Origin: Capsulimonadaceae bacterium
Lineage (GTDB): Bacteria; Armatimonadota; Armatimonadia; Armatimonadales; Capsulimonadaceae
Direction: 5' to 3'
Assembly: GCA_965215505.1 (NCBI GenBank)
Contig: OZ244065.1
Location: forward strand, 1,664,001 to 1,728,000
Length of the DNA stretch: 64,000 bases
The notes under the pieces are model-generated. The model did not search any database and was not told the DNA's origin. It worked only from the letters and a program-made list of their open reading frames with translations. The translations under genes were made by a program, and so were the position numbers. Position 1 is the stretch's first letter, and each line of letters opens with the position of its first letter. Shown one piece after another: positions 18,064 to 23,751 of this stretch.

Positions 18064-18954
18064 ATGGCGGAAGAGCAGAAGTCAACATGGAAGACCAAGG
18101 TGGGTCTGGCCGAGATGCTCAAGGGCGGCGTCATCATGGACGTCGTGAACCCGGAGCAGGCGATCATCGCCGAGGAAGCCGGCGCGACGGCGGTGATGGC
18201 CTTGGAGCGCGTGCCCGCCGACATCCGGCGCGACGGCGGCGTGGCGCGGATGTCCGACCCGAAGATGATTAAGGGCATCATGGACGTCGTGACCATCCCG
18301 GTCATGGCGAAGGCCCGGATTGGGCACTACGTCGAGGCGCAGATATTGGAGGCCCTGGGCGTGGACTTCGTGGACGAGTCCGAGGTGCTGACGCCCGCCG
18401 ATGACGCCTTCCACATCTCAAAGCACGACTTCAAAGTCCCCTTCGTCTGCGGCTGCCGCGATCTGGGCGAGGCCCTGCGGCGCATCGGCGAGGGCGCTTC
18501 CATGATTCGCACCAAGGGCGAGGCCGGCTCGGGCAACATCGTGGAGGCAGTCCGGCACATGCGGACCGTGCTGGGCGGCGTCCGCCGCATCCAGGCCATG
18601 CCGTTTGAAGAGCTGATGACCGAGGCCAAGAACCTGGGCGCTCCGTATGAGCTGGTCGTCGAGATCCACCGGACCGGCAAGCTGCCCGTGCCGAACTTCA
18701 GCGCGGGCGGCATCGCCACCCCCGCCGACGCGGCCCTGATGCGCCAGATGGGCGCGGAAGCGGTCTTTGTCGGGTCCGGCATCTTCAAATCCGGCGACCC
18801 CAAGCGGCGCGCACGGGCAATGGTGGACGCCTGCACCCACTACGACAACCCGATGATGCTGGCCGAAATCTCTAACGACATCGGCGAGCCGATGGTGGGC
18901 ATCAACTTGAACTTCGTGCCCAAGGAAGAGATGATGGCGAATCGCGGCTGGTAG
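18064..18954 (+). CDS. pdxS: Pyridoxal 5'-phosphate synthase lyase subunit
   Basis: [33 protein letters not shown]. Confidence 0.97.
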
Positions 18955-18969
18955 CACAGGCCGGCAAAG

Positions 18970-19004
18970 AAAGAGCGGCTGCCCCCTTGGGGCAGCCGCT
19001 CTTT
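18970..19004. terminator. Bidirectional intrinsic terminator between convergent pdxS and rsr
   Basis: AAAGAGCGGCTGCCCC-ctt-GGGGCAGCCGCTCTTT with A/T tracts on both sides. Confidence 0.85.
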
Positions 19005-19026
19005 TGTCGTGTCGGGCCTTGCCATG

Positions 19027-20628
19027 TCAGGCGACCGCGAAGTCGCTCATGACGTTCGGCGTTGCGGTCGAGAACCCGACCACGTCCATCATGCCCGCGT
19101 CGTCGGGGTCGGCGATGGTGAATTTATTGGACACCATGCCGCAGACGATCAGCTTGGCCGGGATGCCCATGCGCTCCCGGTACAACCGCAGGGCCTGGAC
19201 CGGCTGGATGTTCCCCGCCCACGTCTCCGAGTCGGTGTAGACGACGAACACGTCCGCTTCGACCTTGTTCTTCAGCGCCCAGACCATCGGCAGGGCGCAG
19301 TCGGTCCCGGCGAAGGGCAGACCGCTGACCGTCTTCAGCACGTCGTCGAGCCGCTGGCGCGGGCTGATATTCAGCGGCATGAACGTCGTCGAGAACGCCA
19401 TGAACCGGTGACGCGCCTCGGTCGCCGCCGTGATCAGGGCCATCGCCGCGCTGGCGACGCGCGGCGTCAGGCCCGGAACGCCCGCGATCTGACCGCCCTC
19501 CATCGAGCCGGACACGTCCAGGGCGAGCAGCCACCGCTGGCCGGTCGGCGTGACGTTGCCGAACGAGGCGTAGAACGCCGCGTCCAGGGCGTCCACGATG
19601 GCGGGGACCGGCGTCCAGCTATTCCCACCGCGCTCGCCATGCCCCTGGGCATAGGTCTTCAGGGCAGACAGGACCTGAATCGGATGGACCCGCGCCTTCC
19701 GCAGACGCGCCCCGTCGGTGATCTGCGCGGCCACCTTCTGAGTCTCCGGCCCCATCGAAGTGAGCAGGCCCACCCGCGTCAGGGTCGCCAGGTTGCGGAT
19801 GAGCGCCGTCATCGGCATCTCCTCCAGCAAGGCCTCCCAGACGAACGGGTCGGTGAGCCACTGCGTCGGGACCGCCTCACGCGGCAGCCGGTACTCGCGA
19901 ACGAGTGCGGCGACCTGCGCCGCCGTCTCTGCCGTTTTGACCCGCTCCGATGCCCAGACCAGCCGCAGGGCCGGGTCCGGGTGGGGCATCTCGCCGACCG
20001 ACTCCCACCCCTGGGTCAGCCAGTGGTAGAGCGCGAAGTGCTGCTCCGTCGCGGGCTTCGGGTGCGAGAGCCGCAGCAGGTCGCGGTGGCTCCAGCCGTC
20101 CCGCTGCCCGTACTTGACCGCCTGGTAGGCCAGCCTGTCGGCGGGCATCTGGGCGTACCAGTTGCCGACCGCCTGCCGCAGCCCGCGGCCCCAGCCGCGC
20201 ATCCCGTCCACATACTGCGCGAAGTGGAACAGGTGCGTCCCGATCCGTGCCACGACCGGCAGGGCCGCCAGCGCCTTCCGGCGCGTGTCCTCGTCGCCGA
20301 GTGCAGCGCACATGGCGAGTGCGAACAGGGCGGGGTCGTTCTTCGGCGCGCGCCCGGCCTCGGACACGGCGACGATCTCGCGTACGACGCGCGGGCCGTC
20401 CGCGCCGATGCACCGCTTGACCGCCTCGGCGTTCTCCAGCGTCAGGGTCGTCTCGCCCGCGTAGAACGAGCCGCCCTCGGTTCCCAGCGCGAGGAATCGT
20501 GCCAGCCGCGTCCAGTCGTCCACGGCGAAGGTGAACCCGCCCGCGCTGTTCGCGACCTGGGCCGAGCCGGGGATGGGCCGGCTCTGCGGCGTCACTTTCT
20601 TGTTAAAAACCGTCTTCAAGTACGTCAT
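19027..20628 (-). CDS. rsr: Ro60/TROVE-domain RNA-binding protein (Rsr)
   Basis: NSAGGF..VDDWTRLARFLALGTEGGSFY, KYGQRDGWSHRDLLRLSHP, MPMTALIRNL, vWA MIDAS LDVSGSM, TDSETW; ATG at 20628 follows an AAAGGAG RBS. Confidence 0.96.
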   Translation of the reverse strand: MTYLKTVFNKKVTPQSRPIPGSAQVANSAGGFTFAVDDWTRLARFLALGTEGGSFYAGETTLTLENAEAVKRCIGADGPRVVREIVAVSEAGRAPKNDPALFALAMCAALGDEDTRRKALAALPVVARIGTHLFHFAQYVDGMRGWGRGLRQAVGNWYAQMPADRLAYQAVKYGQRDGWSHRDLLRLSHPKPATEQHFALYHWLTQGWESVGEMPHPDPALRLVWASERVKTAETAAQVAALVREYRLPREAVPTQWLTDPFVWEALLEEMPMTALIRNLATLTRVGLLTSMGPETQKVAAQITDGARLRKARVHPIQVLSALKTYAQGHGERGGNSWTPVPAIVDALDAAFYASFGNVTPTGQRWLLALDVSGSMEGGQIAGVPGLTPRVASAAMALITAATEARHRFMAFSTTFMPLNISPRQRLDDVLKTVSGLPFAGTDCALPMVWALKNKVEADVFVVYTDSETWAGNIQPVQALRLYRERMGIPAKLIVCGMVSNKFTIADPDDAGMMDVVGFSTATPNVMSDFAVA

Positions 20629-20640
20629 CGTCTTTGTCTC

Positions 20641-20662
20641 CTTTCGGCCCCAGTGGGGCAAG
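20641..20662 (-). promoter_or_regulatory. Ro-binding-site-like hairpin overlapping the rsr Shine-Dalgarno
   Basis: RNA CUUGCCCC-acu-GGGGCCGAAAG runs into GAG of the SD; same motif as in the Y RNAs. Confidence 0.6.
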
Positions 20663-20665
20663 TGC

Positions 20666-20744
20666 CGGACAGGCAAGGGGTGCGCCTGGGTGTTGGTTTT
20701 CTGGTTTCAAGAAGAGTGTTAACCCAAACACTTCGGCCCGTCCG
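20666..20744 (-). ncRNA. Y RNA, linear type (unit A)
   Basis: 5' CGGACGGGCCGAAG-UGUUUGGGUUAAC...CUUGCCUGUCCG 3'; the termini base-pair. Confidence 0.8.
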
Positions 20745-20762
20745 TGTCACAGTGTCACGATC

Positions 20763-20909
20763 TGAAGAGCGGCAGGACTTGCACCTGCACTGCCTCTCGG
20801 CAACGCCGTCCCTGATAACCGTTATCCTGCGGCCTGCAAGCGGGCAAAGGTCGGTAACGGGAATGCCTTGCGGCCACGACGCGCGTCTGCTGATTTCGCC
20901 ACGCTCTCC
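20763..20909 (-). ncRNA. YrlA-like tRNA-mimic Y RNA (unit B)
   Basis: Acceptor GGAGAGCG/CGCUCUUC, Leu-like D arm UGGCGAAAUCAGCAGACGCG, T arm GCAGG-UGCAAGU-CCUGC, internal UUUGCCCGC..GCAGGCCGCAG..GGUUAUC. Confidence 0.8.
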
Positions 20910-20957
20910 ATCGTTGGTTCAGGCCATGGCCTGAACCGGCTCCGTCGTCAGTATGCA

Positions 20958-21095
20958 TGAAGAGCGGCAGGAGTCGAACCTGCTGCCTCCGGGGTGAAAG
21001 ATAACCGTTTTCCTACGGCCCGCATCGCAGGCAAGTGGCGGAAACGGGAACCGCCTTGCGGCGACCCGGTGAGCTGCCGTTGCTCCACACTCTTC
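20958..21095 (-). ncRNA. YrlA-like tRNA-mimic Y RNA (unit C)
   Basis: Acceptor GAAGAGUG/CGCUCUUC, D arm GAGC-AACGGCA-GCUC, T arm GCAGG-UUCGACU-CCUGC, internal CUUGCCUGC..GCGGGCCGUAG..GGUUAUC. Confidence 0.82.
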
Positions 21096-21100
21096 ATCGC

Positions 21101-21218
21101 TGGCTCAGGCAAGGTGATTGCCTACGGGTGTCACCCCGTACTGGAGTTCATCGCTCCAGCGCTTTGCTCTTGGTCAGGGTGCGATCACTCGATAACCCGT
21201 ATGCTGCGGCCCGAGCCA
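21101..21218 (-). ncRNA. Y RNA, linear type with a large multi-hairpin loop (unit D)
   Basis: 5' UGGCUCGGGCCGCAG-CAUACG-GGUUAUC...CUUGCCUGAGCCA 3'. Confidence 0.8.
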
Positions 21219-21235
21219 TTCTTATCCAGTTGTCA

Positions 21236-21344
21236 TGGAGGCGATCGGAGTCGAACCGATGACCGTGTGGTAACCATCTTCCAGCGGCCCGCGAAGCAGG
21301 CAAAAGGCGGCGATGGGTTGCTCTACCTACTGAGCTACGCCCCC
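21236..21344 (-). ncRNA. YrlA-like tRNA-mimic Y RNA (unit E)
   Basis: GGGGGCG-UAGCUCAGUAGGUAGAGC...UUUGCCUGC-uuc-GCGGGCCGCUG..GGUUACC...AUCGG-UUCGACU-CCGAU-CGCCUCCA. Confidence 0.85.
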
Positions 21345-21350
21345 GCCTGT

Positions 21351-21416
21351 GGTTCAGGCAAATGCCGCGCCTGGGGGTAATCTTAACAGGATAACCCAGG
21401 CGCTTCGGCCCGAACC
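21351..21416 (-). ncRNA. Y RNA, minimal linear type (unit F)
   Basis: 5' GGUUCGGGCCGAAG-CGCCUG-GGUUAUC...CCAGGCG..UUUGCCUGAACC 3'. Confidence 0.8.
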
Positions 21417-21442
21417 GGTGTCTCGCTCTTCGTATCCAGTTG

Positions 21443-21567
21443 TGGTGGAGAGCGGGAGGATTCGAACCCCCGACCCCGTCAGTGATAATGATAACCGTCA
21501 TCCAGCGGCCCGCGGGGCAGACAAAGGGCGGAGACGGATCGTGCTCTGCCACTGAGCTACGCTCCCC
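21443..21567 (-). ncRNA. YrlA-like tRNA-mimic Y RNA with encoded CCA (unit G)
   Basis: GGGGAGCG-UAGCUCAGUGGCAGAGC...UUUGUCUGC..GCGGGCCGCUG..GGUUAUC...GGGGG-UUCGAAU-CCUCC-CGCUCUCC-A-CCA. Confidence 0.85.
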
Positions 21568-21630
21568 GTATTCGGCGATCCGCTATTCAGTTATGACCGG
21601 CCCCGCCTGGCAGCAGGGCCGGAAAAGGAC

Positions 21631-21720
21631 GTTCAGGCAAAAGGCGTCCTGGGATCATCCCGTTGCCGGGATTTGGATTCGAACCAGTGTGCCAGATAAC
21701 CCAGGGACTACGGCCCGAAC
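21631..21720 (-). ncRNA. Y RNA, linear type with a T-loop-like hairpin (unit H)
   Basis: 5' GUUCGGGCCGUAG-UCCCUG-GGUUAUC..UGG-UUCGAAU-CCA...UUUGCCUGAAC 3'. Confidence 0.8.
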
Positions 21721-21744
21721 TTCAATCTTCGTCGTGGTCTTCGC

Positions 21745-22077
21745 CTAGAACCGGAAGGCCGCGAGGCAGCCCGCGAGGCAGGCCAGAAGCAGCAGGAGCA
21801 TGAGCGCGTCGGAAACGCGCGACAGGCCCGCGTTGTGGCCCTTGCCATCCCGCTTCGGCTCCGGCGCGGGCGGCGGGGCGAACTCCAGGATGATCAGGTT
21901 GCCGCGCCGCTCGATCACCCGTCCCACGCTCCTGCCGGGGGGCTTCGGGTTACGCTCCGGGGGATGGCCCGTGCGCTCCGCGAAATAGTGGACCAGACAC
22001 AGCGGCGCAGCTGTGTCGCCCCCGCTGTCCCCCACCCCCTGCATGTCTTCGTCGTACTCCGTGATGTCGTATGTCAC
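21745..22077 (-). CDS. Hypothetical protein with a C-terminal hydrophobic helix, first gene after the attenuator
   Basis: GAAGGAGA RBS 5 nt before GTG; C-terminal LMLLLLLACLAGCLAAF. Confidence 0.65.
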   Translation of the reverse strand: MTYDITEYDEDMQGVGDSGGDTAAPLCLVHYFAERTGHPPERNPKPPGRSVGRVIERRGNLIILEFAPPPAPEPKRDGKGHNAGLSRVSDALMLLLLLACLAGCLAAFRF

Positions 22078-22103
22078 TGGTTTCTCCTTCAGGAAAAGCG
22101 TTC

Positions 22104-22160
22104 AAAGAAAAAGACGCCCACCGCTCGGCTTGTGGGCCTTTGCGGTGGGCGTCTCTTTCT
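22104..22160 (-). terminator. Intrinsic terminator (putative attenuator) in the leader of the Y RNA-rsr unit
   Basis: AGACGCCCACCGC / GCGGUGGGCGUCU stem followed by UUUUCUUU on the minus strand. Confidence 0.8.
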
Positions 22161-22186
22161 CACGGGTACACGAGTGTGGTGAGTGT

Positions 22187-22333
22187 CTAAGGGACGAGTC
22201 CTCCGTCAAAGGAAGCAGTCGGGCGCTGGTACTGGGCGTTCACGAGCCACTGCCCACGACCGGCGGGGTCGGACTGGTGGCGCTCGCTGGTTAATGTGCT
22301 AACGTAAATCATGCTGGTCTGCTTCAGTGTCAT
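22187..22333 (-). CDS. Putative 48-aa leader peptide
   Basis: Hand translation MTLKQTSMIYVSTLTSERHQSDPAGRGQWLVNAQYQRPTASFDGGLVP*; AAAGGAG and GAGGA upstream; lies between the promoter and the terminator. Confidence 0.6.
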   Translation of the reverse strand: MTLKQTSMIYVSTLTSERHQSDPAGRGQWLVNAQYQRPTASFDGGLVP

Positions 22334-22370
22334 TGTCCTCGGCTGCTCCTTTCACTAAAATCGGTTGGTG

Positions 22371-22403
22371 CGTATGATACCCATACGTTCAGCGGCTTGT
22401 CAA
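22371..22403 (-). promoter_or_regulatory. Sigma70-type promoter with an overlapping palindrome
   Basis: TTGACA (22403-22398), 18 nt, TATCAT (22379-22374); CGTATG-N5-CATACG at 22371-22387. Confidence 0.7.
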
Positions 22404-22432
22404 GGGGTGGGGCGAAATAGTTTTGCGCGGCC

Positions 22433-23695
22433 TCACAGCTTCGTGCTGCTGTTGAGGAAGGACTGGGCGTAGATGCCGCCGCGGAGGGCATCACTGGCGG
22501 CCTTGGCGAGCGAGGCGGTCGTCTCGCCGGGGTGCAGGGCCACGTCCGCGGGGGTGATCGTCAGCAGCGGCTTGTCGGAGATCAGCACCTGGTCGCCGCT
22601 GGACTCGATTTGGTACATCTGCAAGCCGCCGTCCAGCAGCGTGTTGAAGCGGTCGGCGATGGCCTTGGCCCGGTTCAGGTCCGGGTCGGACAGGGTCGGC
22701 AGGGTGTGGTTGACGAACACGATGTCCTCCCCGCCGCCCGGCGCGGGGTGGACGAGGGCGTGGGGGGCGTCGGTCGCCTCGCGGACGGCGTGTGTGGTGA
22801 TGGGGACGTTCATGGCATCGAGTTCCGCGCGGATCATCCCGACGCGCTCGGTCGTGTAAGGGTGGTCCATTAGGATGCCCAGCTCGACCTTGGGGCTGCG
22901 GGCCTCGATGTCGGCCAGCCGCTGCATGAACGTCATCATGGCGACGGGATTGTAACCCGCCTTCTGCAAGAGGAGGGTGCCGCCATGGTCGGCGTCCGCC
23001 TCGGCGGCCTGGCTGTATTTGGTGTTGAGGATGCCCATCTGCGCGTACTGCGCGCCCGCCGCGAGGTTCGCGATGTCGGTCGTGTTGACGTGGGCAACGA
23101 TTGCGGCCAGCAGACCCGCGATCATCTCGGTGTTCATCTTGGACTGCTCGTGCGACAGCGACTGGATGTGGTGGTGGGCGGCGTGGGTGATCTCGTGGGC
23201 CAGGACGCCGGCCAGCTCGTCGTCGGTGCGGACGAACTTCAGCAAGCCGGAGTTGACGTAGACGTAGCCGCCCGGCAGCGAAAAGGCGTTGACGTCCTTC
23301 TCGTCAATGACGAAGAAGTGCCAGGTGAAGGGGAAGGTCCTGTCGTTGCCGTAGTCGGCGTGATAGGTCGTCGTGTTGGCTATGGCGGCGAGCTTCTGGC
23401 CGATGGCGTTGACTCGGTCCAGAACGGCCTTGTCCTTGACCATCTTGACGGCCTTGTTGACCTGTGCGGAGGCGTCCGCACCCTGCTTTGCCTCGTCGGC
23501 GGCCTGGGCCTTGTCGCGGGCGGACAGAGGCGCGGGCGTCGCCATGGAGAGCGCGCCCGTCGGGGGGAGGCCGGCGGCACGGGCGGACACCCCCCACCCC
23601 AGGCAGGCCAGGGTCGTAAACAGCAGAGGCTTGATGTTCGCGGGGGGCTTGATGTTCGCGGGGGGCTTGATGTTCGCGGGGGGCTTGATGTTCAT
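22433..23695 (-). CDS. M48-family metalloprotease, secreted
   Basis: VNAFSLPGG, ELAGVLAHEITH, EADAD, GYNP, DHP. Confidence 0.9.
   Translation of the reverse strand: MNIKPPANIKPPANIKPPANIKPLLFTTLACLGWGVSARAAGLPPTGALSMATPAPLSARDKAQAADEAKQGADASAQVNKAVKMVKDKAVLDRVNAIGQKLAAIANTTTYHADYGNDRTFPFTWHFFVIDEKDVNAFSLPGGYVYVNSGLLKFVRTDDELAGVLAHEITHAAHHHIQSLSHEQSKMNTEMIAGLLAAIVAHVNTTDIANLAAGAQYAQMGILNTKYSQAAEADADHGGTLLLQKAGYNPVAMMTFMQRLADIEARSPKVELGILMDHPYTTERVGMIRAELDAMNVPITTHAVREATDAPHALVHPAPGGGEDIVFVNHTLPTLSDPDLNRAKAIADRFNTLLDGGLQMYQIESSGDQVLISDKPLLTITPADVALHPGETTASLAKAASDALRGGIYAQSFLNSSTKL
23628..23693. repeat. 18-bp tandem repeat (about 3.7 copies) encoding NIKPPA at the M48 N-terminus
   Basis: GGCTTGATGTTCGCGGGG repeated. 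Confidence 0.92.
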
Positions 23696-23751
23696 GGCAT
23701 GTTTTCCAGATCGCCGACGCATATGCCGGAAGGATATGATATAATGGCGCT

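Follow-up and report, generated by a model that had tools for sequence, protein, structure and literature searches.

Ro60 is a conserved protein that acts in RNA surveillance and is an autoantigen in humans; its adaptor RNAs are the Y RNAs. We analysed a stretch of 64,000 nucleotides (the window) from a Capsulimonadaceae bacterium (Armatimonadota; assembly GCA_965215505.1, contig OZ244065.1, forward-strand positions 1,664,001 to 1,728,000), in which the gene for a Ro60 orthologue, rsr, is preceded by an array of predicted Y RNA genes. The array fills the 1.06-kb gap between a small open reading frame (ORF), orf110, and rsr. A preliminary description, made from the letters of the window, had pointed to eight copies of a minus-strand motif, each with a partner strand, in about 1.05 kb that lack a convincing coding sequence. 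A scan of the window recovers the motif RGGCCG-N9-GGTTAHC as eight exact matches on the minus strand (20718–21716) and none on the plus strand. The mean of shuffled windows is 0.02 copies, and none of 100 shuffles reaches eight. Throughout the genome (6,177,771 bases scanned) the strict motif occurs eight times, and every copy lies on the minus strand in the array between orf110 and rsr. The partner strand UUGYCYG can be read directly next to the motif in all eight units. The seven submitted ORFs of 54–134 amino acids (aa) within or overlapping the array have no Pfam match above cut-off, in agreement with the described lack of coding sequence.

The eight units lie 35–1095 nt upstream of rsr on the same (minus) strand, and this same-strand position also holds for the units found in relatives. 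Their order, H-G-F-E-D-C-remnant-B-A-rsr, and the identity of rsr itself stand as first described (Table 1). The scores in Table 1 refer to two covariance models: R1 for the tRNA-shaped type, built from 13 units with a hand-drawn structure, and R2 for the linear type, built from 21 short units. RNAalifold on a MAFFT alignment gave the acceptor, D and T arms and a poor central fold; the central pairs were drawn by hand. An R1 cut-off of E 7e-10 was chosen to exclude ordinary tRNAs, at the price of losing the weaker B-type units as well.

Table 1. Units of the Y RNA array and flanking features, in window coordinates
Feature	Position	Strand	Description	Motif	Model score (bits)	RF01656 (bits)	Fold z
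Unit H, linear	21628..21723	-	T-arm-like hairpin (loop UUCGAAU) and small CCCGG/CGGG hairpin inside	21695-21716	R2 47.2	18.2	-1.98
Unit G, tRNA-shaped	21443..21567	-	8-bp acceptor (G:C, G:C, G:U ...), D arm, capped Ro hairpin, UUAUC, 3-bp variable arm, T arm, discriminator A, encoded CCA	21490-21511	R1 134.6		
Unit F, short linear	21349..21418	-	terminal stem, bulged C, upper stem, UUAUC loop	21390-21411	R2 83.3	32.3	-4.55
Unit E, tRNA-shaped	21236..21344	-	7-bp acceptor GGGGGCG/CGCCUCC, A73, no encoded CCA	21269-21290	R1 81.6		
Unit D, linear	21100..21219	-	internal domain of ~75 nt	21191-21212	R2 45.2	28.2	-2.48
Unit C, longer tRNA-shaped type	20958..21095	-	8-bp acceptor GAAGAGUG/CGCUCUUC; extra GCAA-capped hairpin 5' of Ro hairpin	21000-21021	R1 75.2 (at 20959-21094)		
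Remnant hairpin	20916..20937	-	two terminal strands of a linear unit, ~165-nt interior deleted; fold -16.6 kcal/mol				-3.83
Unit B, divergent tRNA-shaped	20764..20909	-	T loop UGCAAGU, long GNRA-capped variable arm, extra GCAA hairpin	20814-20835	R1 48.2		
Unit A, linear	20664..20746	-	ends 35 nt before rsr start codon	20718-20739	R2 52.5	30.0	-3.50
rsr, Ro60 orthologue	19027..20628	-	533 aa; Pfam TROVE 9.2e-47, vWA_Ro60 1.6e-66				
orf110, small conserved ORF	21745..22077	-	110 aa, hydrophobic C-terminus; ends 22 nt before unit H; no Pfam family				
Sigma-70-like promoter match	22374..22403	-	TTGACA-18-TATCAT; 11 of 12 consensus positions; upstream of orf110; consensus match alone				

One putative docking module in two architectures

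All eight units share a putative Rsr docking module. It consists of a helix between GGGCC(bulged C)G and UUGYCYG, which we call the Ro helix, and of the sequence GGUUAUC nine bases further on. The pair types of this helix are the same in both classes of unit (G:U, C:G, G:C, G:C, G:U or G:C, C:G, with the bulged C), and the bulged helix is conserved across 63 tRNA-shaped and 93 linear units. The bulged Ro helix and the same-strand proximity to rsr are two features expected of bacterial Y RNAs.

The linear units H, F, D and A have the partner on the 3' side of the motif. The two strands form the ends of the unit and close a 9-bp terminal stem with the bulged C, as had been described; predicted folds and the R2 scores agree on this point. 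Beyond the terminal stem, the folds contain a second stem that ends in GGUUAUC. The interior domain differs among the four units, a variation also known from animal Y RNAs. The T-arm-like stem inside unit H covaries in its orthologues (UUAG/CUAA, UUGG/CCAA, UGAG/CUCA, CAAG/CUUG).

The remnant between C and B aligns to both ends of intact linear units of about 190 nt that occupy the same position in three relatives' loci (L003, L008 and L009). Intact counterparts are found at L003:3388-3600(-), L008:3525-3763(-), L009:3414-3636(-) and L012:791-977(+). They carry a 24-nt stretch that matches the 23S rRNA of the window's genome near 4117037-4117062, with 22 of 24 identities in L009 and matches of 19–24 nt in the others. 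This part of 23S rRNA is presumably the helix 69 loop and its 3' flank, and the stretch may mimic rRNA, with the Ro helix as its handle. Mimicry of other cellular RNAs by the window's own units was considered as well; blastn-short against their genome returned only chance-level matches of 14–25 nt.

In the tRNA-shaped units G, E, C and B, the partner precedes the motif by a few bases, so that the Ro helix becomes a hairpin with a short cap loop inside a cloverleaf. An open acceptor stem of 7 or 8 bp, a D arm (GCUC...GAGC) and a T arm (GGUUCGAAUCC in G; GGUUCGACUCC in E and C) surround this hairpin in all four units. The orthologues of unit B show a covarying variable arm. Units G and E pass the gathering score of the Rfam tRNA model (RF00005; 29 bits) with 38.8 and 44.5 bits, and both alignments place an insert of 48 nt or longer in the anticodon arm. 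Acceptor, D and T arms and the elbow nucleotides of a tRNA are all present, and the corresponding helices are 98.7–99.5% paired over 63 units. These results, together with the R1 scores of all four units, uphold the earlier reading that a hairpin replaces the anticodon arm of a cloverleaf.

The tRNA-shaped units do not contain the 5-bp anticodon stem with a 7-nt anticodon loop of a true tRNA. ARAGORN calls no tRNA in the array, and it called no tRNA-shaped Y unit in seven other loci. We therefore rejected the possibility that these units are intron-containing or decoding tRNAs, given the missing anticodon loop and the negative ARAGORN result. We also considered a GAU/AUC paired extension of the anticodon stem; variation in the corresponding alignment (A2) did not support it, and it was omitted from the model. 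As to tRNA parentage, comparison of the 5' and 3' parts with the 63 tRNAs of the genome gave weak preferences: E is nearest to tRNA-Ala (29/53), and G is nearest to tRNA-Gly (26).

A short motif close to ACAACUGAAUA trails many G-type and E-type units across genera. In the window it lies at 21420-21442 and 21222-21235 on the minus strand, and it has the same position in L003, L004, L006–L009, L011, L014 and L017. This motif may be a 3'-processing signal.

Conservation in relatives and linkage to rsr

Rsr was found in 35 of 61 related genomes. In most of these 35, the 1.5 kb upstream of rsr contains two to nine motif copies in which both arrangements are mixed. Arrays of this size are normal in the clade, and the claim of an expanded repertoire overstated the case, because relatives carry two to nine units in the same interval; array size is thus not what is new here.

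The alignment of the tRNA-shaped type covers 63 units from 31 loci. In this set, 96.4% of the cells in paired columns can pair, as opposed to 81.9% after shuffling and 37–49% in slid controls; changes on both sides occur in 28 of the 34 pairs. For the linear type (93 units), the corresponding numbers are 93.2% versus 76.0% after shuffling and 34–48% in slid controls, with two-sided changes in 16 of 20 pairs. Covariation in orthologous loci, the absence of which would have spoken against the preliminary description, is therefore present for both models. The sturdier part of this evidence is the slid controls together with the many compensatory pair types. These comparisons indicate that the two architectures are real and are conserved with compensatory changes.

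The units are exclusively linked to rsr. In the window's genome, R2 matches only the four linear units; R1 matches the four long units and 14 ordinary tRNAs of 72–74 nt. An even sample of the phylum, searched at E up to 1e-9, gave an R1 match in 25 of 151 genomes. Four of these have a 72-nt tRNA alone, and 21 genomes from six families have long units. When distant genomes were searched for Rsr, long units were found 67–542 nt upstream of rsr and on the same strand in five of five. Long R1 matches also lie beside rsr in metagenome-assembled genomes (MAGs) labelled Planctomycetota, Gemmatimonadaceae and Entotheonella. Matches in MAGs of Actinomycetota are weaker and less clear.

Ordinary tRNA genes also keep company with rsr. 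In MAGs of Actinomycetota and deltaproteobacteria (L045, L046, L047, L050, L051, L060, L062 and L063), rsr lies amid roughly 10–25 ordinary tRNA genes on the same strand, an association that exceeds the single tRNA known from Deinococcus radiodurans. One Planctomycetota MAG (L059:1828-2446, plus strand) has a real tRNA-Ala(UGC) with linear units directly adjoining it on both sides (model-hit gaps of 1 and -1). This tRNA is followed by two tRNA-shaped Y units, one with a GCAA-capped Ro hairpin and the other with a hairpin that is nearly identical. A specific link between the arrays and tRNA-Ala genes was considered and dropped, as the ordinary tRNAs in the arrays of other loci have many identities.

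Possible processing, acceptor ends and interpretation

We then turned to the question as to how such arrays may be used. Merging the R1 and R2 matches gives 134 junctions between neighbouring units. Alternation prevails in 104 of them (53 from linear to tRNA-shaped, 51 in the reverse direction); 11 join two linear and 19 two tRNA-shaped units. The gaps from linear to tRNA-shaped units are short: 27 of 53 measure 7 nt or less (3–7 nt), with a mode of 4–5 nt between model hits. Within the window, a distance of 6 nt separates the end of F, of D and of the remnant from the first acceptor base of E, C and B, respectively. If RNase P cleaved at the 5' end of a tRNA-like unit, the preceding linear RNA would therefore receive its 3' end from the same cut. 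The tight junctions fit release by RNase P. Chen 2014 (PMC4201824) places Y RNA genes within 4 kb of rsr and on its strand, and describes a common precursor of YrlA and YrlB in M. smegmatis, cleavage of this YrlA by RNase P, the addition of CCA to it, and a single precursor of Yrn2, tRNA-Asp and Yrn1 in D. radiodurans. The idea that the interleaved units provide processing sites gains indirect support from the junction spacing and from these published precedents.

By tblastn, orf110 has matches in 13 relatives' loci (among L002–L030), in the same orientation and upstream of the array, and it may be co-transcribed with it. A gene for an M48 peptidase (22433-23722, minus strand) precedes orf110, and the synteny of M48 gene, orf110, Y array and rsr suggests one functional unit. 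No terminator-like site was found on the minus strand in 18900-22500, and co-transcription of orf110, array and rsr is plausible from the layout of the region. Between unit A and the rsr start codon (20629-20663, minus strand), a GC hairpin, GCCCC-ACU-GGGGC, stands just before the AAGGAG ribosome-binding site; it may have a role in processing or translational control.

From these observations, we infer the following course of events. Transcription of the array would most probably give one precursor or a few, with a possible start at the putative promoter upstream of orf110 and continuation into rsr. The tRNA-shaped units would be excised by RNase P together with the enzymes that mature tRNA 3' ends, and this cleavage would at the same time set the linear units free. 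Each RNA is predicted to dock on Rsr through the shared helix, with a different second domain (tRNA-like, T-arm-like or of another kind) exposed to effectors, for example PNPase or proteins that bind tRNA. We consider it likely that the array encodes eight Y RNA partners of Rsr and the stump of a ninth, in two architectures, released by precursor processing and serving effector presentation.

Several observations weigh against this interpretation. The Rfam model of YrlA (RF02553, 69 bits) has no match at E up to 10 in 20300-22100 and none genome-wide at E up to 0.001, and the Rfam Y_RNA model has none at E up to 10 in the array region. The YrlA motif GNCGAAN0-1G is strictly present in only two of the eight units (A and F); the others read GCCGNNG. 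In the tRNA-shaped units, the docking helix is closed by a loop and not by free ends, a form that Ro60 might not accept. Unit B, 145 nt long, scores within the range of ordinary tRNAs in R1 (48.2 bits), no better than some of them. Fold z is not significant alone for G (-0.53), E (-1.84) and the B stretch (+1.0; cut short at the 3' end), so that the tRNA-shaped folds rest on comparison with relatives. In that comparison, the shuffle contrasts are generous because alignments A4 and A6 were made by fitting to the models and consist of related sequences, and the Ro helix itself gains little covariation support because its core hardly varies. Finally, the promoter is a consensus match alone.

The main alternative is that the tRNA-shaped units are processing punctuation only, that is, degenerate tRNA genes that release the linear Y RNAs without being partners of Rsr themselves. 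The tight linear-to-tRNA-shaped junctions favour this explanation, as does the finding that ordinary tRNAs hold comparable array positions in L019, L022, L028–L030 and L059, and tRNA-Asp does so in D. radiodurans. However, the full Ro helix is present almost without change in the capped hairpin of each of the 63 units (97.7% pairing in helix 4, with core pairs identical in 53–63 of 63), and GGUUAUC is kept at its fixed spacing. A bare cleavage signal would need neither. ARAGORN, moreover, names none of the tRNA-shaped units a tRNA. We regard punctuation without binding as unlikely.

Alternatively, the array could be a cis-acting leader of the rsr mRNA. Rsr would then bind its own 5' untranslated region, chiefly at unit A, and autoregulate translation or decay, and free RNAs would not be produced. 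This proposal draws on the promoter-like site upstream, on the lack of a terminator-like site between array and rsr, and on the position of unit A, which adjoins the rsr start in most relatives. On the other hand, the CCA ends on tRNA-shaped units and the 6-nt junctions point to excision, and in the species studied in Chen 2014, the Y RNA genes upstream of rsr give precursors from which free RNAs are processed. The leader and free-RNA readings do not exclude each other, and a leader that yields no free RNA seems quite improbable to us. That the array is decaying repeat DNA or a set of functionless tRNA pseudogenes, as one deletion remnant and the divergence of B might suggest, is very hard to reconcile with compensatory changes in 28 of 34 and 16 of 20 pairs, with conservation in six or more families of the phylum as well as in MAGs from other phyla, and with the exclusive linkage to rsr.

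We tabulated the acceptor ends of 64 tRNA-shaped units, namely the 63 of alignment A4 and the window's unit B. Fifteen units have an 8-bp acceptor that starts with G:C, G:C, G:U and is followed by A; CCA comes next in 14 of these. Twelve have a 7-bp version with G3:U70. In either frame, a G:U third acceptor pair is thus kept in 27 of 64 units, most of them with discriminator A. Three units that otherwise fit the 8-bp group differ by A:U at the third pair, and both G:U and CCA are missing from the C and B types. Unit G of the window belongs to the 8-bp G:U kind and unit E to the 7-bp kind. The acceptor of E, including A73, is identical to that of the transfer-messenger RNA (tmRNA) of its own genome, and G3:U70 with A73 is common to the three tRNA-Ala genes of that genome. 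Elsewhere in the genome, the set of G:U, A73 and CCA was seen in these three tRNA-Ala genes and in tmRNA; for ARAGORN tRNAs, the G3:U70 reading is usable only for genes with all seven acceptor pairs recovered.

G3:U70 is the identity mark of alanine, and alanyl-tRNA synthetase ignores the anticodon. Since this enzyme needs no anticodon, alanine is one of the few identities open to an RNA without an anticodon loop. The tRNA-shaped units could accordingly be imagined as Ro60-tethered tRNA mimics that are cut by RNase P, tailed with CCA and charged with alanine, with the unpermuted form as a possible ancestral link between tRNA and YrlA; such a link may have arisen by insertion of a Ro hairpin into the anticodon loop of a tRNA. 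We hold this scenario to be doubtful. If true, alanylation could couple Rsr to EF-Tu, the ribosome or the charging status of the cell. The published origin model for YrlA, a dimeric tRNA transcript (Wang et al. 2018, 10.1101/312249), differs from such a hairpin insertion.

Comparison with known Y RNAs and tRNA-like RNAs

The role of YrlA's tRNA-like domain is a standing question on the bacterial side of the field. A Y RNA that occurs in nature, is conserved widely and has its acceptor end free, in some cases with CCA and marks of the alanine type, would indicate that the tRNA mimic can exist unpermuted, and it bears on the origin of YrlA from tRNA. Handling of Y RNAs by the tRNA machinery (RNase P, CCA enzyme, synthetase, EF-Tu) becomes directly testable. 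As for annotation, neither ARAGORN nor the Rfam YrlA model sees these genes, which are mislabelled as tRNA when they are detected. Taken together, the sequence comparisons identify the units as real, conserved Y RNA genes of two architectures.

Like YrlA, the tRNA-shaped units lie beside rsr on the same strand and combine a Ro-binding helix with a D arm, a T arm and an acceptor-like stem. The order of the 3' half also corresponds, with the Ro 5' strand, YUAY/UUAUC, variable region, T arm and acceptor 3' strand in succession. According to Chen 2014 (PMC4201824), a conserved YUAY begins the variable loop of YrlA, the same place that UUAUC holds here. Because this local order equals that of YrlA, we regard the tRNA-shaped units as related to YrlA rather than independently invented.

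The overall wiring is different. YrlA ends in the Ro stem, has its T arm before its D arm and carries a closed acceptor loop. The units described here end in an open acceptor stem, have the D arm first and close the Ro helix with a loop; since the predicted docking module sits at the end of the anticodon arm as a capped hairpin, the ends of the RNA come to lie in the acceptor stem. YrlA is without a free CCA end, and the M. smegmatis RNA alone becomes tRNA-like at this end, after cleavage (Wang et al. 2018, 10.1101/312249). The tRNA-shaped units differ from YrlA in both defining respects, model match and topology. RF02553 found nothing at gathering in 40 related or distant rsr loci either, and we rejected canonical YrlA identity on the basis of this negative result together with a topology (D arm 5' of the T arm, open acceptor, capped Ro helix) unlike that of YrlA. 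The permutation relative to YrlA noted in the preliminary description is therefore real. The Chen 2014 table (PMC4201824) lists a YrlA match for one Armatimonadetes genome, Fimbriimonas.

Our full-text literature searches, outside the range of which lay Burroughs and Aravind 2016, two Wolin-laboratory reviews and the supplementary figures of Chen 2014, found no description of an unpermuted tRNA wiring. By sequence, what is new in the present array would be this unpermuted topology, in many cases combined with G3:U70, A73 and an encoded CCA.

A close counterpart is the cleaved form of M. smegmatis YrlA (Chen 2014), which likewise has a tRNA-like domain with a free 5' end, a CCA 3' end and the Ro stem at the anticodon position. 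There, the form is a two-piece RNA produced by cutting a permuted precursor, whereas here a one-piece form is directly encoded. D. radiodurans resembles the window in having several Y RNAs upstream of rsr in a tRNA-containing precursor, in keeping both Ro strands and in having linear Y RNAs with a T arm like that of unit H. In contrast, its intervening element is an ordinary decoding tRNA, and in the window's elements the Ro helix replaces the anticodon loop.

Two further tRNA-like RNAs invite comparison. tmRNA shares the acceptor and T-arm module with G3:U70, A73 and CCA and also does without an anticodon; unlike tmRNA, the tRNA-shaped units have a full D arm and lack an mRNA-like domain and pseudoknots. 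Unit G scores 21.7 bits with the tmRNA model (RF00023), whose gathering score is 47, with its ends alone aligned, and the genome's real tmRNA lies elsewhere. The second is b7a-tRNA, as relayed in Wang et al. 2018 (10.1101/312249) from Burroughs and Aravind 2016. This predicted RNA is described as strongly tRNA-like, as occurring occasionally beside rsr and as the partner of a Band-7 protein beside RtcB. The RtcB genes of the present genome are at least 1.4 Mb from the locus, and no rtc operon context was found here.

A search with Infernal models, proposed as a check in the preliminary description, had a divided outcome: the YrlA and Y_RNA models were silent, the tRNA model accepted G and E, and the model of nematode Y RNA homologues (RF01656) aligned the linear units below its threshold. 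The animal Y RNAs and nematode stem-bulge RNAs (RF01656; Kowalski and Krude 2015, PMC4726728) share with our linear units a lower stem with a bulged C, an upper stem and UUAUC at the same distance. RF01656 aligns H, F, D and A end to end, all four below its gathering score of 38 (Table 1), and its consensus has the GGUCCG-N9-GGUUAUC spacing of the linear units. Linear units of four relatives' loci pass the gathering score with 38.2–41.9 bits (L015:180-245, L003:4170-4278, L009:3175-3268 and L012:1158-1244); automatic annotation would name these bacterial units worm sRNAs. The units of the window differ from their animal counterparts in being bacterial, tandemly arranged, probably not products of RNA polymerase III, and below gathering. 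The close likeness of the linear units to eukaryotic Y and stem-bulge RNAs, including the spacing of UUAUC, raises doubt as to whether the Y RNAs of bacteria and animals are really unrelated.

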